NCBI GenBank assembly: GCA_963668625.2
Contig: CAXXKA010000006.1
Coordinates: forward strand, 608,001 to 672,000
From: an uncultured candidate division Zixibacteria bacterium
GTDB lineage: Bacteria; Zixibacteria; MSB-5A5; UBA10806; 4484-95
Direction: 5' to 3'
Length of the DNA stretch: 64,000 bases
Shown here: one piece after another, positions 15,343 through 27,204 of the stretch
Position numbering within the stretch: position 1 is the first letter of the stretch
Layout: each line of letters opens with the position of its first letter
Position numbers and translations under genes: made by a program
The notes under the pieces: generated by a model
What the model was told of the DNA's origin: nothing
The model's database searches: none
What the model saw: the letters and a program-made list of their open reading frames with translations, nothing else

Positions 15343-16068
15343 ATGGCTGATGAACAATCTGAATTAAACAATGAGGAACAGGAAAACCAGCCGAAAACTC
15401 CGGAGGAGGGGCTGGAGGCTGAAAGTTCCGCAGATGAGCAAACACCGGCCGGTGATGAAAATCTTAATATGCCTGACATGGATTTCGCCAACGGTGAAAA
15501 GGCCGATGATGAGGCCGGGGAGGATCTGAGCGCAGATATTAGCGCTGACACCGGAAGCGACTTCGAGAAGACCGTAAATCCCGAGGATGCCAACGAGGAT
15601 GATGCCGAAGCTGAGATGCTCAAGATGATGGAGCAGAGCAACGTACTCGGTGATGATGAAAAAGTGGTAAATCCCGAGGATGCCAGCGAGGACGATGCGG
15701 AAGCTGAGATGCTCAAGATGATGGAGCAGTCCGCAGGCGCCGCGCCGGAAGAGCCGGTCGTACAGAAAGCCAGTTTCAGCGAATTCAGCGACCCGCCCAA
15801 GCAGGAGCCGAAGAATCTGAATTTGCTCATGGATGTCTCGTTGCCGATATCGATCGAACTCGGTCGTACGGCCATGGCGATCGAAGATATCCTGAATCTG
15901 GGACCTGGTTCGGTTGTCGAACTGGATAAGCTGGCAGGTGAACCGGTGGATTTGCTGGTTAACAATAAGCTTTTAGCAAAAGGTGAAGTAGTAGTAATCG
16001 ATGAGAATTTCGGCGTGCGTATTACCAACATGGTGTCCAAGCCGGATAGGATCAGGAGTTTGCAGTGA
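15343..16068 (+). CDS. fliN: Flagellar motor switch protein FliN with acidic N-terminal extension
   Basis: [14 protein letters not shown]...[15 protein letters not shown]...[14 protein letters not shown]. Confidence 0.93.
15574..15729 (+). repeat. Intragenic direct repeat in fliN (2 x 63 bp, period 93 bp)
   Basis: VNPEDA(N/S)[15 protein letters not shown] encoded at 15574 and 15667. Confidence 0.9.
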
Positions 16069-16496: not shown

Positions 16497-17242
16497 AGTT
16501 TTTAAAAATTGCTCTGATAACGATTATATTATTTTCGGTGATGGGCGGAATAGCCCATTCTCAAACGACTCTGCCTAAAATATCCGTGCAGGTCGAGGAT
16601 AGTGAGAACGCCAAGGATTTATCGGTAACGTTGCAAATCCTTCTCATGATGACGATACTGACTTTGGCGCCCTCTATAATAATAATGCTGACATCGTTCG
16701 TGCGGATCGTGGTAGTATTCTCGTTTCTGCGCCATGCGGTCGGTACTCATCAAATGCCGCCGAATCAATTATTGATAGGTTTGGCATTGATTCTGACGGC
16801 GTTTATCATGGCGCCGACAATCACACAGGTAAACGATAACGCGCTACAACCTTACCTCAATGATGAGATCAACCAGAAGGAAGCATATGAGATCGGTATA
16901 CAGCCGATTAGGGATTTCATGCTCAAACAGGTAAGGGAGAAAGACCTGGCGTTGTTCGTTTCACTGTCGGGAATCGATAAACCCGAATCGCCCGCTGATT
17001 TACCAACATACCTGATTATCCCGGGATATGTTATCTCGGAACTCAGGATAGCTTTTCAAATCAGTTTCATTCTTTTTATTCCGTTTATAATTATTGATAT
17101 GGTAGTGGCCTCGGTGTTAATGTCGATGGGTATGCTCATGCTACCGCCGATTATGGTGTCGTTGCCTTTCAAGATACTGCTGTTCGTGCTGGTGGATGGC
17201 TGGTATTTGATAGTCAAATCGTTGGTTACCAGTTTTAACTAA
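16493..17242 (+). CDS. fliP: Flagellar export gate FliP
   Basis: LTSFVRI, PPNQ, MGMLMLPP..SLPFKILLFVLVDGW. Confidence 0.97.
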   Translation: MKFLKIALITIILFSVMGGIAHSQTTLPKISVQVEDSENAKDLSVTLQILLMMTILTLAPSIIIMLTSFVRIVVVFSFLRHAVGTHQMPPNQLLIGLALILTAFIMAPTITQVNDNALQPYLNDEINQKEAYEIGIQPIRDFMLKQVREKDLALFVSLSGIDKPESPADLPTYLIIPGYVISELRIAFQISFILFIPFIIIDMVVASVLMSMGMLMLPPIMVSLPFKILLFVLVDGWYLIVKSLVTSFN

Positions 17243-17274
17243 TGAGATTAATGTTTGGAAGATGAGGTAGTACT

Positions 17275-17544
17275 ATGGATATGCAATATGTAATTCAACT
17301 CGGACGTTCGGCTATCTACACCACCCTCCTGGTGGCCGGGCCGATGCTGGCTTTCTCCCTGATGATCGGTTTGGTAATCGCGATATTTCAGGCGATAACA
17401 CAGATTCAGGAGATGACTCTGACATTCATCCCCAAGATTATCTCGGTAGCCCTGGCGCTGATTTTATTTCTTCCCTGGATGATGAGTACGGTATTGAGTT
17501 TCACCGCCCAGATATTCAATATGATACCGGCACTGGCGCATTAA
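17275..17544 (+). CDS. fliQ: Flagellar export gate FliQ
   Basis: FQAITQIQEMTLTFIPKI signature. Confidence 0.97.
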   Translation: MDMQYVIQLGRSAIYTTLLVAGPMLAFSLMIGLVIAIFQAITQIQEMTLTFIPKIISVALALILFLPWMMSTVLSFTAQIFNMIPALAH

Positions 17545-17594
17545 TCCCGATATCGAAGTACATTTAATATAGCAAGCCGTATCTAATATTCCTC

Positions 17595-17622
17595 TTGACA
17601 TGATTAAATAGTTATTTATATT
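17595..17622 (+). promoter_or_regulatory. sigma70-like promoter of array unit 1 (copies near 20018 and 22452)
   Basis: TTGACA-N16-TATATT conserved in all three leaders; TGn extended -10 in units 2 and 3. Confidence 0.55.
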
Positions 17623-17805
17623 GCAATTGAGCAATATCTACAAGAGGACATACTTGACATGATACGGAATACCCCTCCCCATAATATGGAGTAGAAGCGG
17701 TCGCGGCCCGCCATATAATTTTAATATGTATATCAATTTGATATAAGGGGGATATAGAATATTTAAGACGTTTTGGTTTAAATATGCTTTCAAGGAGGCT
17801 AATAA

Positions 17806-18177
17806 ATGTATTTACGATATGCACTGATTGGATTATTAGCAATAGTATTTGCGGCATCAATGGCATTTGCGGATGGCGGATTTATAGGAGATATTTACTA
17901 TAAGGATTGCGATTGTAGTACATCCCCGGATTATGATATCGTTAAAATCAAGGATCGTTCCACAGGACAAGTTGTTTTTGAACAACAAATGATCTACATT
18001 GTCTCGCCTGGTTATTGGACAGGCGCTCAAACATTCCCTCCCGGTTCGTATGATATATGGGTGCAACTTGGGCCAAATTCTGAATGCGATCATGGTGTAG
18101 TAAAAACTGTTATTCATGGGGCAACCACTCAAACTGTCAACCTTACTGTCTTAGGGCCGGTCGAACAGGGGCATTAA
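17806..18177 (+). CDS. Small secreted Cys-containing beta-sandwich-like protein, unit 1
   Basis: AAGGAGG RBS; signal peptide MYLRYALIGLLAIVFAASMAFA; G.Y...FPPGSY.I.V pattern. Confidence 0.85.
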   Translation: MYLRYALIGLLAIVFAASMAFADGGFIGDIYYKDCDCSTSPDYDIVKIKDRSTGQVVFEQQMIYIVSPGYWTGAQTFPPGSYDIWVQLGPNSECDHGVVKTVIHGATTQTVNLTVLGPVEQGH

Positions 18178-18195
18178 ATATTAATCCTATATGTT

Positions 18196-18225
18196 TACGT
18201 AGTCAGATATTTCTCTGACTACGTA
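18196..18225 (+). other. Intergenic hairpin, unit 1
   Basis: TACGTAGTCAGA-6nt-TCTGACTACGTA, perfect 12-bp stem. Confidence 0.8.
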
Positions 18226-18248
18226 TACTTTAAAGATAGGAGATTTGA

Positions 18249-19958
18249 ATGTTTATCAAGCTTTTCATGCGGGTATTAATAGCCTGTTTCATTATATTTG
18301 AATACTTATATGCTCAATCACCTGATTTATTAAATGGCTGGCCCTATATGTTTGGTGACAGTTATAATATTAGGTCTACCCCTGTTTTCTTCGGAAATGC
18401 GTTTAACGATACTCTGGCTATCCTTTTCACCGGCGAACCATCCACAATAAGCAAGTTAAACCTGTGGAACGAATTGTTTGATGGCTGGCCAATTCGAGAG
18501 GACGGTGCCAGATTCAGTTATACGCCAATAGCTGTTGATATAGATCACGACTATAAAGATGAATTTGTTGTCCTGGGATTGATGGATCAATATCTCATAT
18601 ATGTTATTGATGATGATCGTTCTATCATGCCGGGATTTCCCCTGGCTTACGATCATAATAACTTACCTAATGTTTTTGATTTTGATAATGATGGTGAATA
18701 CGAATTAGCCTATCAATCGGTAAGCGAAAGTTTAATTTATTGTGTTGATGGAAACGGCCAAATGGAGCCCGGCTGGCCCGCCGCTTACCCGGCTGACTGG
18801 GAAGGTTTTAACGGCAGGGGCACTATTGGTGATATTAATTTAGATGGCTATAACGAATTCATTATAACCGGATTGAAAAAGATTTATGCCTATCAATATG
18901 ATGGTTCGCTTTTGAATGATTTTTGTTTGGAAACAATCGATACATCTTACTATTTCAATACGAATCGTGGGTGTTGTTGCGCGGATCTCGACGATGATGG
19001 CTATCTAGAATTCCCTTTGGCAGCATCTAAAAGAGTAGGCAATACATTGAATAGCTATGTAGCGATATACGAACATGACGGTCAAATAAAGGATGGCTGG
19101 CCTTTACATTATTACAGCAGTTATGTCTGGATTATGCCTACTCCTTCCGATATTGATGGTAACGGCACAGTTGAGATAGGCTATTCGGAAAACAGCCATA
19201 CGCATTTTGTTGATATTAGCGGTAATCATCTTGCTGGATGGCCAACTGTAATCATGGCGCCTGATAATCGATGCGCTTATGCAATGAGCGATATCATCAT
19301 TGTCGATATCGATGGTGATAGAGATTCGGAGATTTTTTTCGGCTGTAACTTTAATTATCTTGATCCAGAGTGGGGATTCTGCAGTTACTTGAATGGCTGC
19401 GATCACCATGGGCAGCCGCTTGAAGGTTTTCCTCTAAGAATTCGGGGAATGTCGGATTATCTTCCACCAGCATTTTTAAGAAATAAGGTCGATGGAAGGC
19501 TGCTAATTGGGATTTCCTCACAGAACACATATGATCCCGGAGTCGATACCGCATATCTGGAGGTCTTCCAGTTTCCCGACTCAACCGGCCCGCCCGATCA
19601 ATGGCCGATGCAGGGGCATGATAACCTGATGACGCGTAACTACAATTTCGTCGATCATGTCACCGCTATCCGGGATGATGAGCAACCGCTGCCTAAAAGC
19701 TATATCCTGACTCAGAACTACCCCAACCCGTTCAATGCTGCTACCACGATTGATTTCGCGCTGCCCAAACCCGAGCATGTCACGATTACGGTATACGATA
19801 TCCTCGGCCGCAGGGTAGAGGCGCTGGTGGATGAGGCATTACCGGCGGGGAACCATCAAGTGGCATGGCAAGCTGATGACTACGCCTCGGGGATCTATTT
19901 TTATCGCATGGAGGTCGGGGATTTGACGCTGAGCCGGAAGATGCTTTTGATTAAGTAA
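18249..19958 (+). CDS. Secreted FG-GAP-like repeat protein with T9SS-type C-terminal sorting domain, unit 1
   Basis: Signal peptide; repeated DxDxDG..E and GWP/GFP motifs; QNYPNPFN...YDILGR...SGIYFYR...KMLLIK. Confidence 0.88.
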   Translation: MFIKLFMRVLIACFIIFEYLYAQSPDLLNGWPYMFGDSYNIRSTPVFFGNAFNDTLAILFTGEPSTISKLNLWNELFDGWPIREDGARFSYTPIAVDIDHDYKDEFVVLGLMDQYLIYVIDDDRSIMPGFPLAYDHNNLPNVFDFDNDGEYELAYQSVSESLIYCVDGNGQMEPGWPAAYPADWEGFNGRGTIGDINLDGYNEFIITGLKKIYAYQYDGSLLNDFCLETIDTSYYFNTNRGCCCADLDDDGYLEFPLAASKRVGNTLNSYVAIYEHDGQIKDGWPLHYYSSYVWIMPTPSDIDGNGTVEIGYSENSHTHFVDISGNHLAGWPTVIMAPDNRCAYAMSDIIIVDIDGDRDSEIFFGCNFNYLDPEWGFCSYLNGCDHHGQPLEGFPLRIRGMSDYLPPAFLRNKVDGRLLIGISSQNTYDPGVDTAYLEVFQFPDSTGPPDQWPMQGHDNLMTRNYNFVDHVTAIRDDEQPLPKSYILTQNYPNPFNAATTIDFALPKPEHVTITVYDILGRRVEALVDEALPAGNHQVAWQADDYASGIYFYRMEVGDLTLSRKMLLIK

Positions 19959-20231
19959 CCGCATTAATTCCGATATTCAAGTACATTTAATATAGTAAGC
20001 CGCATCTAATATTCTTCTTGACATGTTTGTTAAGGCTGTTATATTGCTGTTAAGTACAAATCATCACGAAGGACAAACTTGACATGAACCGGCATAACCC
20101 CCCCCATTATATGGAGTTTATCCGTTCGCGGCCCGCCGTGTGATTATAATCCGTGTATCGATTTGGCATAAGGGGGATATAGAATAGTCAATAGTTTTTG
20201 GTCATACGATTTCTTTTAAGGAGGCAAACCA

Positions 20232-20609
20232 ATGTATTTACGATATGCACTGATTGGATTATTAGCAATAGTATTTACTGCATCAATGGCATTTGCGGAT
20301 GGCGGATTTCATGGAACAGTCAGCTATAGAGATTGTGAATGCCATTCTGGATCATGGGATAATGTCAGGATTGTAAATGATGCAACAGGTGCTGAACACA
20401 TTGCTCGTATTCATCTTACTTATCCTACATCAGGTACTTATGGGACACAACATACGACCTTCCCCGAAGGCTATTATTCAATATCCGTAGTACTTGGAGA
20501 CGGTTCTGATTGTGATCACAGCTATGTTCAGAAGGTTTATCATTCGGATGATCCAAACGACCAAACAGTTGATTTGGTGGTATTTGGCCCAACAAGTCAA
20601 CCCCACTAG
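20232..20609 (+). CDS. Small secreted Cys-containing protein, unit 2
   Basis: Signal peptide nearly identical to unit 1; divergent mature part retaining CxC and SDCDH. Confidence 0.85.
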   Translation: MYLRYALIGLLAIVFTASMAFADGGFHGTVSYRDCECHSGSWDNVRIVNDATGAEHIARIHLTYPTSGTYGTQHTTFPEGYYSISVVLGDGSDCDHSYVQKVYHSDDPNDQTVDLVVFGPTSQPH

Positions 20610-20623
20610 GATTTTATATCTAT

Positions 20624-20653
20624 AAGGTCGCTTTTCTATTGAAAAGCGACCTT
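20624..20653 (+). other. Intergenic hairpin, unit 2
   Basis: AAGGTCGCTTTTC-TATT-GAAAAGCGACCTT, perfect 13-bp stem. Confidence 0.8.
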
Positions 20654-20682
20654 TATGAATTAATTTATTAGGAGGCCGAATA

Positions 20683-22392
20683 ATGAAAGATGTATCAAAA
20701 CTTGTAATTTTAATTCTATTAGCTAATACATTAGCGGTTTGCCAAGCTCCAGATTTACTGCTTGGATGGCCATACCGATGTGAAACTGGTTTAGGCTCTG
20801 TGGTAGTTACACCCAGGTTTGCAGAGCAAGATTCATTTGCGCTTTATTATAACAATCGTAATGGTGAAATCATTAAATTTCGCAGGGACAACTCATACTA
20901 TCCAAACTGGCCATTCGTAGAACCTGATGTTCCTTTTCTCCATACATCGATTTTGGCCGATGTTGATAATGATAGTATACAGGAGTTTATAGTCAATTCA
21001 TCTGATTATTTATTCATAGTTGATGATACGGGCGAATTATTATTCAACAGCCCCTACTACCTTGAAAATACATCCTCGGTTTCAATGGCAGATTATGACT
21101 CGGATGGAGAGTATGAGTTTATATGTTTTTCTCGTCAGCAACGAGAGATATATTGTACAGATATATATGGAAATAGTCAGGCAGGTTGGCCAGTGACGCT
21201 GCCAGAGGATGCATGGATTTCTATAGATGGAGCCGGTTCAATCGGTGATTTGGATGATGACGGCTATTTGGAAATAGTGATTCGCGGCTTTGATAATATC
21301 TATGCATATCGTTGTAACGGAGAGATGCAACCTGGTTTTCCTATTGAAATTATTGATACGGTATATAGCTACCTGGATTGGCATGGGCCATCTTTAGCCG
21401 ATCTTGATAACGATGGCAAATTGGAGATAATTACCGCCGCATGTACTCAAGTTGATTTGCCTTGCAGTTCATATATAGCGATTTATTGTTATGACGGCAG
21501 TCTTATGGAAAACTGGCCTAAATATTATAACGATAATACTCAAATTTTTCAGGTTCCCACCGTTGCTGATATTAATAATGATGGTCTATTGGAAATAGGT
21601 TTTACATTAGCTAATGAAAATGAAGGGGGGTTGTACTTTCTTGACATATACGGAGATATTTTGCCCGGTTGGCCTTCATATATTGTAGATACTACAGGAT
21701 GGCCGGTTATCTTCGAGTCTGATATAATCGTAGTTGATATTGATGGCGACAACGATTGCGAGATTTTTGGAGATTTTAATGTTGCTTTTCCTGATAGCAG
21801 TGGGCATGGATACTACAGTAAACTGTTTGGCTTAGATCATTTGGGGAATTTATTAAGCGGTTTTCCTATAATCGTTGAAGATGTTTCACTGTCTACACCT
21901 CCATCATTTCACCTCGATTCTAATTATAGAATGTTAATGGGGCTAAACTCTGCACATTATTATGTTGAGCAAGAAATAGACTCAGTATTTGTTGAGGTCT
22001 TCCAATTCCCCGATTCCACCGGCCCGCCTGACCAATGGCCGATGCAGGGGCATGATAATTTGATGACGCGTAATTACAATTTCGTAGATCGTGTCACCGC
22101 TATCCGGGATGATGAGCAACCGCTGCCTAAAAGCTATATCCTGACTCAGAACTACCCCAACCCGTTCAATGCCGCTACCACGATTGATTTCGCGCTGCCC
22201 AAACCCGAGCATGTCACGATTACGGTATACGATATCCTCGGCCGCAGGGTAGAGGCGCTGGTGGATGAGACATTACCGGCGGGTAACCATCAGGCGCTAT
22301 GGCAGGCTGATGATTACGCCTCGGGGATGTATTTTTATCGCATGGAGGCGGGGGATTTGACGCTGAGCCGGAAGATGTTGCTGATTAAGTAA
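20683..22392 (+). CDS. Secreted FG-GAP-like repeat protein with T9SS-type CTD, unit 2
   Basis: Same architecture as unit 1; last 132 aa differ from unit 1 at 6 positions. Confidence 0.88.
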   Translation: MKDVSKLVILILLANTLAVCQAPDLLLGWPYRCETGLGSVVVTPRFAEQDSFALYYNNRNGEIIKFRRDNSYYPNWPFVEPDVPFLHTSILADVDNDSIQEFIVNSSDYLFIVDDTGELLFNSPYYLENTSSVSMADYDSDGEYEFICFSRQQREIYCTDIYGNSQAGWPVTLPEDAWISIDGAGSIGDLDDDGYLEIVIRGFDNIYAYRCNGEMQPGFPIEIIDTVYSYLDWHGPSLADLDNDGKLEIITAACTQVDLPCSSYIAIYCYDGSLMENWPKYYNDNTQIFQVPTVADINNDGLLEIGFTLANENEGGLYFLDIYGDILPGWPSYIVDTTGWPVIFESDIIVVDIDGDNDCEIFGDFNVAFPDSSGHGYYSKLFGLDHLGNLLSGFPIIVEDVSLSTPPSFHLDSNYRMLMGLNSAHYYVEQEIDSVFVEVFQFPDSTGPPDQWPMQGHDNLMTRNYNFVDRVTAIRDDEQPLPKSYILTQNYPNPFNAATTIDFALPKPEHVTITVYDILGRRVEALVDETLPAGNHQALWQADDYASGMYFYRMEAGDLTLSRKMLLIK

Positions 22393-22665
22393 CCGCATTA
22401 ATTCCGATATTCAAGTACATTTAATATAGTAAGCCGCATCTAATATTCTTCTTGACATGTTTGTTAAGGTTGCTATATTGCTGTTAAGTACAAATCATCA
22501 CGAAGGACAAACTTGACATGAACCGGCATAACCCCCCCCATTATATGGAGTTTATCCGTTCGCGGCCCGCCGTGTGATTATAATCCGTGTATCGATTTGG
22601 CATAAGGGGGATATAGAATAGTCAATAGTTTTTGGTCATACGATTTCTTTTAAGGAGGCAAACCA

Positions 22666-23064
22666 ATGTATTTACGATATGCACTGATTGGATTATTAGC
22701 GGTATTATTCACGGCATCAATGGCGGCAGCGGATGGTCATTTTACAGGAGCTGTTTTATTCCCGAAACTCTGGACTACTGATTGTGAGTGGGAATCTGAA
22801 ATGTATGTGTATGTCTACAACGTGCTCACACCGGGGAACCGGGACAGGTATCTGGTTTCCTGTTGTTATTGCCCGACCCCTGATTACGAGCACGGTATGT
22901 TTACGACCGCAGATTATCCGCCGGGAACTTACGTATTTGAGTTAATTTTACCTGCAAGCTCGGATTGCTATGTGACGAAACCTGATCCTCAATTTGTCCA
23001 TGGCATGGCCAATCAATCTATTTCTATAAAGGTTGAGCCCAGAACCCAGGGACAACCAGATTAA
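22666..23064 (+). CDS. Small secreted Cys-rich protein, unit 3
   Basis: Shared signal peptide MYLRYALIGLLA; YPPGTY, SDC and an extra CCYC. Confidence 0.85.
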   Translation: MYLRYALIGLLAVLFTASMAAADGHFTGAVLFPKLWTTDCEWESEMYVYVYNVLTPGNRDRYLVSCCYCPTPDYEHGMFTTADYPPGTYVFELILPASSDCYVTKPDPQFVHGMANQSISIKVEPRTQGQPD

Positions 23065-23081
23065 CTTTAATTATTAACATT

Positions 23082-23109
23082 ATGCCGCCGGTATTATTAC
23101 CGGCGGCAT
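23082..23109 (+). other. Intergenic hairpin, unit 3
   Basis: ATGCCGCCGGTA-TTAT-TACCGGCGGCAT, perfect 12-bp stem. Confidence 0.8.
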
Positions 23110-23144
23110 TATTACAAATATGTAAGGAGATGGTACGATAAAAG

Positions 23145-23345
23145 CATCTTGCTAATCTATTCTGTTGGTGTTAGAGCTTCGGTAATGAATTTCTAACTGG
23201 AGCGGATAGGTTATAGGCTGAACTGAATGCTTGAGGCCAGACCTCGTAAAGGAGATTAATCAGACCTGTAACCGAATTGCCACCATAAGGCAAAGACCTT
23301 GAATAGGAGTTTGGTAGGCGCCGACAGAGAGTCTGCTCCAGTGAT
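23145..23345 (+). ncRNA. Putative IS110 bridge RNA in the left non-coding end
   Basis: Stems 23196-23207/23331-23342 and 23209-23221/23260-23273; loop segments match target (AAAGGAG, AACT) and donor (ATAGGAG, ACCAT); ends approximate. Confidence 0.7.
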
Positions 23346-23367
23346 AACCATAGAATGGAGCAAGAAG

Positions 23368-24381
23368 ATGAGGTACTTAGGAGTAGACCTTCACACAAAC
23401 AGTTTGACCGTGTGTTACCTGACAGCCGGTGGTCGGGAGAGGATCAAGGAGTATCGGCTAAAGGATCTAAAGGAATTTAAACGAGGATTAAAAAAGACGG
23501 ATTGTGTAGCGGTTGAGGCCACTGGCAACACTCGTTATTTCGTTGATGAGATATCGCATTTGGTCAAGCGAGTTGTTGTCGTCGATCCGAACAAATTTGA
23601 GATAATCAAATCATCAGTCAGTAAGACGGATGAAAACGATGCCAGGAACTTAGCCTATTTTATGAGCAAAGACATGTTGCCGAAAGCCCGATTAAAGACG
23701 AAAGATAAAGCGCAGATCAGTTCACTTGTTGGGACACGGGACAAGCTGGTCAAGTTACGTACAGCTTTGAAGAATAAAATACACAACATACTCAATCATC
23801 ATGGTATCAAGAGTAAAAAGGAGGCCTACTCCAGCAACAAGAGTTTGGAGCGGGTTCTAAAGATGAATTTTGATGAGGTTGTTTCTGTTGAGCTTGAGGT
23901 ATTGGTTGATCAGATTCGCAGTTTGAATGAGGGGATAAAAAAGCTGGACAAACAGATAGAGGATCAGGGTCGCAAGTTGAACGGGCATAAGAACCTGACC
24001 AGCATCAAAGGAATCGGCAGCAAATCAGCTACAGTGTTGCTTTCGGTAATTGGTGATGTTGCTGATTTTTCGGACAAAGATAAATTGGCCTCATATTTTG
24101 GCGTAGTGCCGCGAGTTTCCAATTCAAACGAGATTCAGCATCATGGTCGGATTACCAAGCGTGGTTCTAAGATTGGTCGGACTACACTGGTGCAGTGTAC
24201 GCTTGTTGCCATACGATATAACCATTACTTGAGTAAATATTACAATCGTATAAAAAACCGTCGTGGCAGCGGTAAGGCTATCATTGCCACAGCCAGAAAA
24301 TTACTGGGAATAATCTATGACACCTTGAAAAATAATTGGGTGTTTGAAGATTTCCCTAACTTTGTGTTAGCAAACAGATAA
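23368..24381 (+). CDS. IS110-family DEDD recombinase/transposase
   Basis: YLGVDLH, VAVEATG, KTDENDA (DEDD); SIKGIG, YFGVVP..SNS....GRITKRG, KAIIATARKL; start moved to ATG 23368. Confidence 0.95.
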   Translation: MRYLGVDLHTNSLTVCYLTAGGRERIKEYRLKDLKEFKRGLKKTDCVAVEATGNTRYFVDEISHLVKRVVVVDPNKFEIIKSSVSKTDENDARNLAYFMSKDMLPKARLKTKDKAQISSLVGTRDKLVKLRTALKNKIHNILNHHGIKSKKEAYSSNKSLERVLKMNFDEVVSVELEVLVDQIRSLNEGIKKLDKQIEDQGRKLNGHKNLTSIKGIGSKSATVLLSVIGDVADFSDKDKLASYFGVVPRVSNSNEIQHHGRITKRGSKIGRTTLVQCTLVAIRYNHYLSKYYNRIKNRRGSGKAIIATARKLLGIIYDTLKNNWVFEDFPNFVLANR

Positions 24382-24419
24382 CTGAAATTTGGAGTAGACT
24401 TTTATCATAGGAGAGTTTT

Positions 24420-26159
24420 ATGAATAGAATAATATTATTGGCCGTGTTGCTGTTTATATTCAGCTTCTCGGATTCATTCTCTCAGGTGCCTGAACTTCTA
24501 GATGGCTGGCCTTATAGCCGTTTGCTAACCTCATACGCCGAACAAAACATTCCGCGGTTTGCATGCGATGCTGATTTAGCGATATTTTACAGCACGCCCT
24601 CAGGCGATAATAATAAATTCCACATGAATGGCTCCTATTACAACGGTTGGCCTGTCTACGAGGATGAAGTTCATATACACGGAAGAATAACGATTGTGGA
24701 TTTGGATCACGATGGTAAGGATGAGTTGGTGGCAAACGGTTATTTCGTTAGTGATATTCCTGCCAGAGTTCTTAATAAACTATATATCATAGATGATGAC
24801 GGCACGATCTTTCCCGATTTTCCAATTATATACAGCACCATAATTTGTCCGAATGTAGCCGATTTCGATGCTGACGGCGAATATGAATTGATATTTTACG
24901 ATGACGAAGTAGAATTAATCTATTGCATCGACAGGTTCGGTAATCCTGAACCGGGCTGGCCGGTGGATTTACCTGATGATATTTATCACCAGTCCGTGAA
25001 CGGTGGTGCTGCGGTTGGTGACCTTGATCTTGATGGATTCTTAGAGTATATAGTTAAAAGTAATGACTGTGTTTATGCCTTTCGCTATGATGGGACAATG
25101 ATCGAGGATTTCCTTATAAAAACCATTGAATATCCTTATTTTTTCGAGGCTCATAACGCTGTTACTCTTGGTGATGTTGATTTTGATGGGTATCTGGAGA
25201 TAGTTTTATCGGCACAGAGAGTCACGCTGGATTCCATCGCGAGTTATGTTGCGATTTACGAACATACCGGAGAGCCAAAGGAGGGCTGGCCGATCATGTT
25301 CCCCGATGCTTATGATTGGAATATGCCGACGATCGCGGATATCAATTCTGATGGTATCCCCGAAATAGGCTTTTCAATGGATGTATATACTTATTTTGTT
25401 GATGTTGATGGCAATCCTCTTGATGGTTGGCCGGTAGAATTTTATAAGCCGGATGGCCGGCCAAGAATGCCGATGTCGGATATAATAGCCGTTGATGTAG
25501 ATGGTGACAATGATTGTGAGATATTTTTCGATTTCAACACTCAGTACTGGGATCCTGAAAATGAAGATATTTACAGTTGTTTCTATGGCTCGGATCATCA
25601 CGGGCAAGATTTGCCCGGATATCCAGTGATTGTCGAAGGTTCCAGCGTGGGGTGTCCGCCAATTTTCCATTTTGACAGTTCTGATAATCAATATTATATG
25701 GCGCTTAGCACTCTGGTGGGATATCCCGATAGTATTTATACGATAGATTCGGTATATCTGGAGGTCTTCCAGTTTCCCGATTCCACCGGGCCGCCCGATC
25801 AATGGCCGATGCAGGGGCATGATAATTTGATGACGCGTAATTACAATTTCGTAGATCGTGTCACCGCTATCCGGGATGATGAGCAACCGCTGCCTAAAAG
25901 CTATATCCTGACTCAGAACTACCCCAACCCGTTCAATGCCGCTACCACGATTGATTTCGCGCTGCCCAAACCCGAGCATGTCACGATTACGGTATACGAT
26001 ATCCTCGGCCGCAGGGTAGAGGTGCTGGTGGATGAGACATTACCGGCGGGTAACCATCAGGCGCTATGGCAGGCTGATGATTACGCCTCGGGGATGTATT
26101 TTTATCGCATGGAGGCGGGTGATTTGACGCTGAGCCGGAAGATGTTGCTGATTAAGTAG
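24420..26159 (+). CDS. Secreted FG-GAP-like repeat protein with T9SS-type CTD, unit 3
   Basis: Same architecture; last 132 aa differ from unit 2 at 1 position. Confidence 0.88.
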   Translation: MNRIILLAVLLFIFSFSDSFSQVPELLDGWPYSRLLTSYAEQNIPRFACDADLAIFYSTPSGDNNKFHMNGSYYNGWPVYEDEVHIHGRITIVDLDHDGKDELVANGYFVSDIPARVLNKLYIIDDDGTIFPDFPIIYSTIICPNVADFDADGEYELIFYDDEVELIYCIDRFGNPEPGWPVDLPDDIYHQSVNGGAAVGDLDLDGFLEYIVKSNDCVYAFRYDGTMIEDFLIKTIEYPYFFEAHNAVTLGDVDFDGYLEIVLSAQRVTLDSIASYVAIYEHTGEPKEGWPIMFPDAYDWNMPTIADINSDGIPEIGFSMDVYTYFVDVDGNPLDGWPVEFYKPDGRPRMPMSDIIAVDVDGDNDCEIFFDFNTQYWDPENEDIYSCFYGSDHHGQDLPGYPVIVEGSSVGCPPIFHFDSSDNQYYMALSTLVGYPDSIYTIDSVYLEVFQFPDSTGPPDQWPMQGHDNLMTRNYNFVDRVTAIRDDEQPLPKSYILTQNYPNPFNAATTIDFALPKPEHVTITVYDILGRRVEVLVDETLPAGNHQALWQADDYASGMYFYRMEAGDLTLSRKMLLIK

Positions 26160-26245
26160 AACAATCTCAGCGATTTATATCACATTCTCTTTAATCAATA
26201 ATCGAACTATTGATGTTTCATTAACTGTTTCAGAATTACCCTTAT

Positions 26246-26281
26246 GGAAAATCCTTCTACGCCATTTCGGAATTATTTTCC
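26246..26281. promoter_or_regulatory. Paired candidate activator sites upstream of fliR
   Basis: GGAAAATCCTTCT (26246) and GGAATTATTTTCC (26269), starts 23 bp apart. Confidence 0.55.
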
Positions 26282-26283
26282 GC

Positions 26284-26310
26284 TCAATATTTACCGGAGC
26301 CTGCCGATAT
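26284..26310 (+). promoter_or_regulatory. sigma28-like promoter upstream of fliR
   Basis: TCAA-N15-GCCGATAT. Confidence 0.5.
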
Positions 26311-26377
26311 ACTGAATAAACATAGATAACTCATTATCCCATAAGTAAATACAATTAGCTATAAAGCATCAAAATAA

Positions 26378-26393
26378 GGGCACAAGCCTTGCT
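26378..26393 (+). promoter_or_regulatory. sigma54 promoter of the fliR-flhBA operon
   Basis: GGGCAC-AAGCC-TTGCT. Confidence 0.75.
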
Positions 26394-26421
26394 ATATGAC
26401 GATAGAGAAGGAGAATCTTTA

Positions 26422-27204
26422 ATGTCGTTGTTGCAGCTTTCAGCCCTCGAATTTGAAAAGCTACTGTTAGTCATCCTGCGAGTAGGTGGGATTATGACAG
26501 TTGCGCCTATGTTTGGCCATCGCAATGTGCCATCAATGGTAAAACTAGGTTTGATTTTATTAATCAGCCTTATTCTTCTTCCCACGGTAACTACCTCGGT
26601 TGACCTGCCGCCGAATTTACTTTCCATGGTTGCTATACTGGCAAAGGAAGTAATGGCCGGCCTGGCAATTGGGTTCACCTCGCTACTGATTTTTATCGCC
26701 ATACAGTTTGCCGGCAATCTCATCGGTATGCAGATGGGCTTCGGTATCGTAAACGTACTCGATCCCAACTCGCAAACACAGGTGCCGCTTATCGGGCAGC
26801 TTCAGTTTTTGCTGGCGATGCTTATATTTCTGGCGCTTGACGGCCATCACATGCTGCTTTCGGCCATAACCGGTAGTTTTCATATCATACCGTTGGGCGA
26901 GATCACCTTCACGCATCTCACCAGCGAGGTGTTGGTAAGGGCGGTGGTTGGCTCGCTGGCGCAGGGGATAAAGCTGGGCGCGCCGTGTATCGTAACGTTG
27001 TTTTTACTTGATGTCTCCCTGGGTATAGTTGCCAGAACCGTACCCCAGATGAACATATTCATTATTGGTTTCCCATTAAAAATCTCTGTTGGGCTTTTCA
27101 TGTTAGGCGCCTCGATGCCGATCGTGGGCTATGTTTTTTCCAAGCTTCTGCAGGGATTGAACTCGGACCTTAACAATTTAATTTTGGCCATGAGGCCGGC
27201 GTAG
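26422..27204 (+). CDS. fliR: Flagellar export gate FliR
   Basis: AGNLIGMQMGF, LDGHH, ARTVPQMNIFIIGFPLKI; ATG 26422 follows an AAGGAG RBS. Confidence 0.95.
   Translation: MSLLQLSALEFEKLLLVILRVGGIMTVAPMFGHRNVPSMVKLGLILLISLILLPTVTTSVDLPPNLLSMVAILAKEVMAGLAIGFTSLLIFIAIQFAGNLIGMQMGFGIVNVLDPNSQTQVPLIGQLQFLLAMLIFLALDGHHMLLSAITGSFHIIPLGEITFTHLTSEVLVRAVVGSLAQGIKLGAPCIVTLFLLDVSLGIVARTVPQMNIFIIGFPLKISVGLFMLGASMPIVGYVFSKLLQGLNSDLNNLILAMRPA

Follow-up and report, generated by a model that had tools for sequence, protein, structure and literature searches.

A tandem two-gene array with type IX secretion signals in the fliQ-fliR spacer of a Zixibacteria genome: junction blocks probably homogenised by gene conversion

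How can neighbouring copies of one gene pair be almost identical in their export signals and promoters and strongly diverged in the folded domains that lie between them? The question is raised by a 64,000-nt stretch of DNA from an uncultured Zixibacteria bacterium (GCA_963668625.2, contig CAXXKA010000006.1, positions 608,001-672,000; hereafter the window, to whose positions the coordinates below refer unless another contig is named), which sits on a 919-kb contig of a 4.3-Mb host genome (10 contigs, GC 45.2%). In this window, the interval between the flagellar export genes fliQ and fliR holds three units on the same strand, each composed of a leader, a gene for a small secreted protein of 123-132 aa (S), a hairpin and a gene for a 569-579-aa FG-GAP propeller protein with a sorting domain of the type IX secretion system (T9SS) (L). 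Here, we argue with moderate confidence that S and L form a tandem-duplicated array in the fliQ-fliR spacer, that the junction blocks of this array have been homogenised by gene conversion and that it encodes a surface propeller with a small partner.

The units follow one another on the forward strand as S1 (17806-18177, 123 aa) and L1 (18249-19958, 569 aa), S2 (20232-20609, 125 aa) and L2 (20683-22392, 569 aa), and S3 (22666-23064, 132 aa, the most divergent S copy) and L3 (24420-26159, 579 aa), open reading frames (ORFs) that stand where a first-pass annotation of the letters had placed them. Its three tandem units of about 2.43 kb are borne out by direct repeats at a spacing of 2423-2434 nt, except that the third L tail follows only after 3767 nt because unit 3 is split by a 1,290-bp IS110-family element (23124-24413), which had been overlooked. 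Among the three copies, the L cores (the first ~436-446 aa) are 37-41% identical and the L tails (the last 133 aa) 95-98%, and the mature S proteins share 31-42% of their residues, compared with 80-96% for their signal peptides. In 60-nt sliding windows, nucleotide identity is 0.9-1.0 in the blocks and 0.3-0.6 in the cores, with a sharp drop at both edges that is completed within about 60 nt of the block ends. This comparison, a check proposed along with the annotation, confirms its description of sharply divergent mature S and L core sequences between near-identical flanks, which holds for the inner junctions: the blocks made up of an L tail, the following leader and the next S signal peptide (19581-20275 from L1 to S2; 22015-22709 from L2 to S3) are 96.0% identical over 695 nt, the tails of L2 and L3 (the latter at 25759-26159) 97.3% identical over 403 nt and the non-coding leaders 2 (19959-20231, between L1 and S2) and 3 (22393-22665, between L2 and S3) 99.3% identical over 273 nt. 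It does not extend to the outer ends of the array, where leader 1 (17545-17805) is only ~77-80% identical to leaders 2 and 3 and the sequence 3' of L3 is unrelated and not a leader copy. The cores were also correctly described as AT-rich and the C-terminal part of L as GC-richer, with a GC of 0.32-0.43 in the cores versus 0.52-0.54 in the tails; at third codon positions (GC3) the values are 0.30-0.41 for the L cores and 0.65-0.67 for the tails, with 0.26-0.42 for S and 0.55-0.60 for the neighbouring flagellar genes. Block edges coincide with domain edges, the constant part beginning at about residue 437 and the modelled propeller of L2 ending at residue 441, and the view that the variable block comprises the folded domains, and the constant block the export signals and promoter, is supported.

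Comparison across genomes argues for gene conversion and not for a cassette system with family-wide constant flanks, as had first been proposed, since L tails group by genome and L cores by lineage and since four similar arrays occur in the same genome. Within genomes, L tails are 79-98% identical (91% in G007, 79-83% in G011 and 95-98% in the window), whereas between genomes they share only 46-67%, in conflict with the core tree. One copy in genome G011 (G011_L016) has its nearest core in a congener's copy (78% identity), yet the tails of those two are only 65% identical; its tail is 79-83% identical to the tails in the same genome, including that of a copy with a core identity of just 41%, which groups in the core tree with a copy from another genus (support 95-96/94). 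Two marks of concerted evolution are thus found: a within-genome likeness of tails that conflicts with the cores, and an identity that spans silent and non-coding positions and has sharp ends. Elsewhere in the genome, four more tandem arrays of T9SS cargo paralogues, all without a small partner (C10, 414466-419913; C6, 422746-430965; C6, 472223-478769; C8, 474980-484093), have C-terminal domains (CTDs) that are 82-99% identical versus 26-75% for their passengers, and the CTDs of neighbouring, non-paralogous cargo genes are 37-59% identical. The contrast between constant and variable parts is therefore nothing special to the S-L array, recurring as it does in four partnerless arrays, and suggests that sorting domains in tandem arrays evolve in concert genome-wide. 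Further alleles of the constant block, which the first-pass annotation had proposed to look for in this genome, did not turn up: the leader sequence is found nowhere else in it, and its other sorting domains reach at most 76% DNA identity over at least 100 nt.

In the proposed model, the ~0.7-kb junction blocks (L linker and CTD, leader and S signal peptide) would be kept 96-99% alike by conversion between neighbours, and the folded domains would escape conversion, being too diverged or selected to stay different; both steps are well supported. It is equally well supported that the same conversion acts on the S-L tails of other Zixibacteria and on the other tandem T9SS cargo arrays described above. 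Gene conversion among surface-protein paralogues with conserved ends and divergent middles is known from babA, babB and babC of Helicobacter pylori. The S-L array resembles such systems in its near-identical, sharp-edged blocks beside diverged parts, in the identity of silent and non-coding positions, and in having shared parts that cluster by genome but diverged parts that cluster by lineage. It differs from them in that the homogenised block crosses a gene boundary (the 3' end of one gene, a promoter and the next signal peptide), in that the unit is a two-gene pair and in having no phase-variable or silent copy. Our literature search found nothing relevant on gene conversion among T9SS CTD paralogues in the papers listed.

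How the array came to lie where it does can be read in part from its junctions. fliQ (17275-17544; Pfam Bac_export_3, 98 bits) ends in the 8 nt CGCATTAA, which also open leaders 2 and 3: 3' of the L1 and L2 stop codons stands CGCATTAAT, in which the final 8 nt of fliQ run on into the leader. A similar fliQ end (GGCGCAATAA) in a congener (same genus) that lacks S-L indicates that these letters are native to fliQ and, as a copy of them opens each inner unit, that the array grew in place via tandem duplication, the first duplication having joined the 3' end of L to a point 8 nt inside fliQ. One S-L unit came to lie in the spacer and was amplified there, the first duplication junction being copied again. 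At the far end, 229 nt between L3 and fliR (26160-26388) appear to be a remnant of the native spacer, part of which matches, by eye, the fliQ-fliR spacer of the other congener; fliR follows intact (26389-27204; Pfam Bac_export_1, 232 bits) and is succeeded by ORFs read as flhB and flhA. fliQ lies directly 5' of fliR in 16 of 18 relatives, with a spacer of ~150-260 nt as judged from tblastn edges, and one further relative is rearranged at this point. The gap of one congener (L046, G001:C286, 2600-7600) contains a different insert of ~5 kb, with two T9SS cargo genes for a NosD-like protein of 428 aa and a beta-helix protein of 1021 aa and with its own TTGACA/TATATT-type site; these cargo proteins are beta-helix proteins unrelated to S and L. 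The fliQ-fliR spacer looks like a permissive, repeatedly used landing place for cargo genes. By position the array is indeed inside the flagellar export locus, as first annotated, but the pair sits elsewhere in all other genomes examined, and its flagellar position may well be incidental.

S and L were from the start described as linked genes, and the comparison with other genomes bears this out. Of 40 relatives searched with a profile of S, nine have a match: three of the nine from the same family, six of the 14 from the sister family and none of the 17 genomes from the other 11 families of the class. At each of the 14 loci fetched from relatives, an L homologue directly follows S on the same strand. 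Nine metagenome contigs were retrieved with a degenerate DNA pattern built on the conserved L linker motif, and S or a fragment of it precedes L in all five that hold the start of L plus at least 400 nt upstream. One short metagenome contig has a tail, a spacer and S in this order and represents a tandem junction. Scanning species genomes with the L alignment gave 34 loci. Of these, the 29 remoter propeller loci lack S, which stands beside only the five L that are closest (36-41% identity); their records are titled Zixibacteria in three cases, Ignavibacteria in one and 'uncultured bacterium' in one. The window's own genome has S in three copies only, and L has three remote paralogues there (28-31% identity), all without S. 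S-L is a conserved two-gene unit, so far in one order, and its close relatives are found in Zixibacteria, apart from the loci titled Ignavibacteria and 'uncultured bacterium'. Among the relatives, one locus (L015, G004:C6, 6111-10836) has a tandem S-L-S-L arrangement with a truncated or frameshifted S and with a highly diverged L partner of which the tail alone matches. Distances of S and L are correlated (Mantel r = 0.61, reached by 1 of 5000 permutations), a value carried by a few close pairs and falling to r = 0.14 for the 87 deep pairs only; as linkage alone explains it, it is no test of co-evolution between S and L.

A hidden Markov model (HMM) of S, run against 1.84 billion cluster representatives, gave 146 matches at E <=0.001, of which ~64 are short stand-alone proteins. 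The remaining matches, long multi-repeat proteins that share just a short PGxY-type strand motif with S, were set aside, as were the many overlapping Ig-like Pfam families found on two of them, which we read as uninformative. A word-based protein search with the three S proteins returned only these same three, and S1-S3 match no Pfam or NCBIfam family. The S protein has ~100 mature residues, two invariant cysteines and a signal peptide ending in AxA before D/E, with no lipobox cysteine (both features judged by eye). The model of S2 is a seven-stranded beta-sandwich of prealbumin/CarboxypepD_reg-like fold (predicted local distance difference test (pLDDT) 88.8). It has no match to the Protein Data Bank (PDB) at E <=0.001 in Foldseek, the weaker matches being generic prealbumin-, CnaB- and carboxypeptidase-regulatory-like sandwiches, and all leads from the ESM Atlas reach at most 0.90.

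The L protein can be placed more closely. All three copies match FG-GAP_3 (PF13517; 40-61 bits, cut-off 26.9), and their sorting domain matches PF18962 Por_Secre_tail (37.1-38.2 bits, cut-off 27) and TIGR04183 (40.6-41.7 bits, cut-off 23). Like other T9SS type A cargo (TIGR04183/PF18962), L is thus encoded with a sorting domain above the cut-offs in a host that has PorU (NF033707; 681.8 bits, cut-off 420) and SprA (TIGR04189; 570.8 bits, cut-off 200). The N-terminus is hydrophobic by eye, and residues 2-19 are helical in the model. Each L carries five DxDxDG-like calcium loops on invariant Asp, Gly and Glu columns, its blades being marked by repeated G-W/F-P motifs, and the model of L2 (pLDDT 76.6) has an eight-bladed propeller at residues 22-441, a low-confidence linker at 446-496 and the CTD at 498-567. 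Family score, fold and calcium loops agree in making L an FG-GAP beta-propeller. The nearest structures in Foldseek include designed eight-bladed propellers, Vibrio cholerae Bap1 (6mlt), BamB, YxaL and integrin alpha. Between propeller and CTD lies the ~55-aa linker FPDSTGPP.QWPM..HDNLMTRNYNFVD (L2 residues 442-497, window ~22006-22173), which is near-invariant across the family and modelled with a pLDDT below 50; conserved and apparently unstructured, it may be a docking or processing site.

Two known protein groups invite comparison with L. Residues 276-557 of L (blades, linker and CTD) align to positions 770-1027 of the 1043 of NF052323, a profile for T9SS-dependent M6-like inactivated metalloproteases; with 86-123 bits against a cut-off of 600 and without the M6-like part, L is not a member of that family. 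Bap1 and RbmC of V. cholerae are, like L, secreted FG-GAP-type propellers with calcium loops, and 6mlt is the fourth-ranking structure match (E 2.6e-11), but a sequence identity of 12%, a TM-score of 0.43-0.45 and a root-mean-square deviation of 12 A over the whole chain make this a fold-level likeness only. Their export route differs, and Bap1 carries an inserted lectin-type domain, which is absent from L. To our knowledge, Bap1 has no small partner gene, and no T9SS cargo family has been described in which a small upstream partner is obligate. Literature searches joining Zixibacteria with type IX secretion, or FG-GAP with T9SS, found nothing.

Whether S and L bind each other was addressed with a predicted complex of S2 and L2, which scored 0.57 (runs 0.53, 0.70 and 0.57) versus 0.01 for the best of three controls, a verdict of 'weak support' on a mark that 116 of 157 solved complexes and 2 of 215 mismatched pairs reach. 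Scores passing the mark at or below 0.60 include 18 of those 157 solved complexes and both of the passing mismatches. At least 64% of contacts are shared between the runs, and the partner has a pLDDT of at least 75. Because of this prediction and the invariant linkage, we consider binding of S to L to be just the likelier outcome. On our reading, S-L would be a multi-copy surface binding module with a cognate small partner: L may leave the cell via Sec and then the T9SS and be displayed on the surface as a binding propeller, S may reach the periplasm via Sec and bind the neighbouring L, either as a subunit carried out with L or as a periplasmic escort, and the three units might provide three diverged specificities. 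If S rides out with L, one may ask whether the T9SS lets through a partner that lacks a sorting domain.

Each unit appears to be equipped for its own expression. The region's three best sigma-70-like sites (11 of 12 matches; TTGACA, 16 nt, TATATT) are those of the three leaders (17595-17622, 20018-20045 and 22452-22479), ~185 nt 5' of each S, and leader 1 also includes a ribosome-binding site (RBS) before S1; every unit has such a strong promoter-like site and complete reading frames. The S-L spacers hold strong stem-loops, of 12 bp in unit 1 (18178-18248; -24.1 kcal/mol, z -6.4), where the L1 RBS also lies, of 13 bp in unit 2 (20610-20682; -21.6 kcal/mol, z -5.0) and, GC-rich, of 12 bp 3' of S3 (23065-23123; -23.8 kcal/mol, z -7.3). 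Across the family, 12 of the 14 spacers that can be folded carry a stem-loop of 10-14 pairs between S and L, different in sequence each time (z -3.7 to -7.3). Since this conserved element follows the S gene, S might be made in excess over L, by partial termination or transcript protection. Rfam gave no family at E up to 1 for 17000-26700, and the stretch before fliR shows no terminator-like site, so that read-through into fliR-flhB-flhA is possible.

Several observations weigh against in-place duplication followed by conversion as the history of these units. Conversion was not seen directly, and core alleles imported via the same flanks would leave the same within-genome pattern. The window cores form a weak clade (52/63) with very long end branches (1.5, 1.5 and 0.9 changes per site, where the median is 0.69) and are 37-41% alike mutually versus 35-44% to the cores of other families. 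Their GC3 lies at the 3rd-11th percentile of long ORFs. The S profile finds no match in either same-genus genome (96% and 89% complete), which implies very fast evolution in place, loss in those genomes or replacement through the flanks. As for the pair itself, the predicted complex is only a weak pass, and the hairpin is absent from two of the 14 foldable spacers, two further spacers being too short for one. The order of the units is that given by the assembly; contigs from short reads stop at each constant block, without any of them spanning two units. Finally, a 234-nt contig from run X1 of another study (depth 2.4, ~96% identity) joins 17862 to 19610, skipping 1,747 nt (mature S1 and L core 1) out of frame with 3 nt shared at the joint; it may be a deletion scar in a close strain. 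The distances among the cores, their low GC3, the missing S in the two same-genus genomes and this contig, with flank-like sequence joined across core 1, would fit S-core and L-core cassettes that were swapped in from other strains via the constant blocks, at a locus polymorphic in the population. However, the flanks are genome-specific and donors would have to be very close kin, of which none was seen; an exact 47-nt leader pattern matched no contig in the metagenome collection; the fliQ-derived 8 nt at both inner junctions show ordinary duplication in place; and the same constant-variable contrast occurs in the four partnerless arrays. Nor is the low core GC3 decisive, because T9SS passengers in this genome are low in general (mean GC3 0.46; 30 of 102 below 0.42). 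We therefore regard such an exchange as unlikely, though worth keeping in mind. The broken short-read contigs would also be expected if the repeated blocks had led the assembler to chain cores from elsewhere or from different strains, an artefact that we hold to be very improbable: in two runs of one sample every core is present at similar single-copy depth (5-9) with no variant letters, the array lies on a 919-kb contig within a 10-contig assembly, the distinct leader 1 is uniquely joined to fliQ and the L3 tail to the fliR spacer, and junctions of tail, leader and S are also present on L025 and L087, contigs of different origin. Run X4, which gives no cover, and run X1, in which the cores are without cover at a depth of 2-3, are uninformative here.

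The units differ in kind from several systems that they resemble in outline. In polymorphic toxin-immunity arrays such as Rhs and contact-dependent inhibition (CDI), as in S-L, a constant part stands beside a variable part with a small co-varying neighbour gene, and the first-pass annotation had drawn this parallel; L would then act as the secreted effector, its variable part being the active one, and S would be the cognate protector. In such systems the immunity gene lies directly 3' of the toxin gene, mostly lacks an export signal and is accompanied by orphan cassettes that have no promoter. This formal likeness and the weakly passing S2-L2 complex are what speaks for it, and we judge it highly unlikely. 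Pfam and NCBIfam give L only FG-GAP and the sorting domain and no toxin, nuclease, peptidase or lipase family, and in its variable part L is a calcium-loop propeller whose scaffold residues are conserved; S is encoded upstream, has a signal peptide and adopts a generic beta-sandwich fold; and orphan promoterless cassettes are missing, all three units having promoter-like sites and start codons. Moreover, the constant part of L is a C-terminal export signal, in contrast to the N-terminal delivery region of Rhs and CDI proteins. Silent-cassette variation of the pilE/pilS type uses one expression site and truncated, promoterless donor copies; antigenic variation of this kind was rejected for S-L, with three complete units, each with its promoter-like site, and no further S copies in the genome. 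A flagellum-linked function, for example as a sheath or surface component co-regulated with the export gate, might be suggested by the place of the array on the same strand between fliQ and fliR, with possible read-through, and by a congener that also has T9SS cargo genes in this gap. Flagellar genes are absent from the vicinity of S-L in all 14 relatives' loci and all nine metagenome loci, most relatives have fliQ and fliR adjacent, the congener's cargo genes are unrelated to S-L, and a Pfam FlgD_ig match on L is below its cut-off (20 bits, cut-off 27) and falls on the T9SS sorting domain; we consider such a function most improbable.

In addition to the array itself, a few features of its surroundings are worth recording. 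The IS110 element lies between the S3 hairpin and L3 and parts L3 from S3 and from promoter 3. Its transposase (ORF 23299-24381) matches NF033542 (242.4 bits, cut-off 140) as well as PF01548 DEDD_Tnp_IS110 and PF02371 Transposase_20, both above their cut-offs, which together with its 11 copies genome-wide at >=99.8% identity assigns the element to the IS110 family; the near-identity of these copies makes recent activity probable. Its read depth is ~50, versus 5-9 in neighbouring sequence. The right end of the element supplies or abuts an RBS (...TAGGAG) 6 nt ahead of the L3 ATG. Contigs from runs X2 and X3 (the probable source sample) match the array up to 21580 and 25919 and then continue into unlike sequence, and the sample may contain a second organism or variant whose L genes are partly similar. 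Run X1 also has a 193-nt piece of fliR with one difference. Further upstream, a 63-nt direct repeat (15574-15729; 95% identical, spacing 93 nt) falls in the acidic N-terminal extension of the ORF at 15343-16068, which is read as fliN/fliY; fliL, fliM, fliN, fliO, fliP, flhB and flhA were named from their sequence and matches in relatives.

What, then, does the array mean for the biology of these bacteria? In S-L, a little-studied uncultured phylum has a strictly linked gene pair that was previously undescribed. A bolder view would be that S and L make up a cognate two-subunit surface receptor found only in Zixibacteria, whose folded parts co-diversify and whose whole cassettes are exchanged between strains via the homogenised export-signal and promoter blocks; we think this quite unlikely, but were it true, the locus would set specificity at the population level, for instance in attachment, kin recognition or phage escape. 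Under duplication and conversion, a familiar process is seen in an undescribed gene pair, with a converted tract that crosses a gene boundary, and a conserved spacer within a flagellar export operon emerges as a place that can take up cargo genes. The array would then be a natural example of how conversion may hold export signals and promoters constant even as the functional domains of surface proteins drift or diversify.

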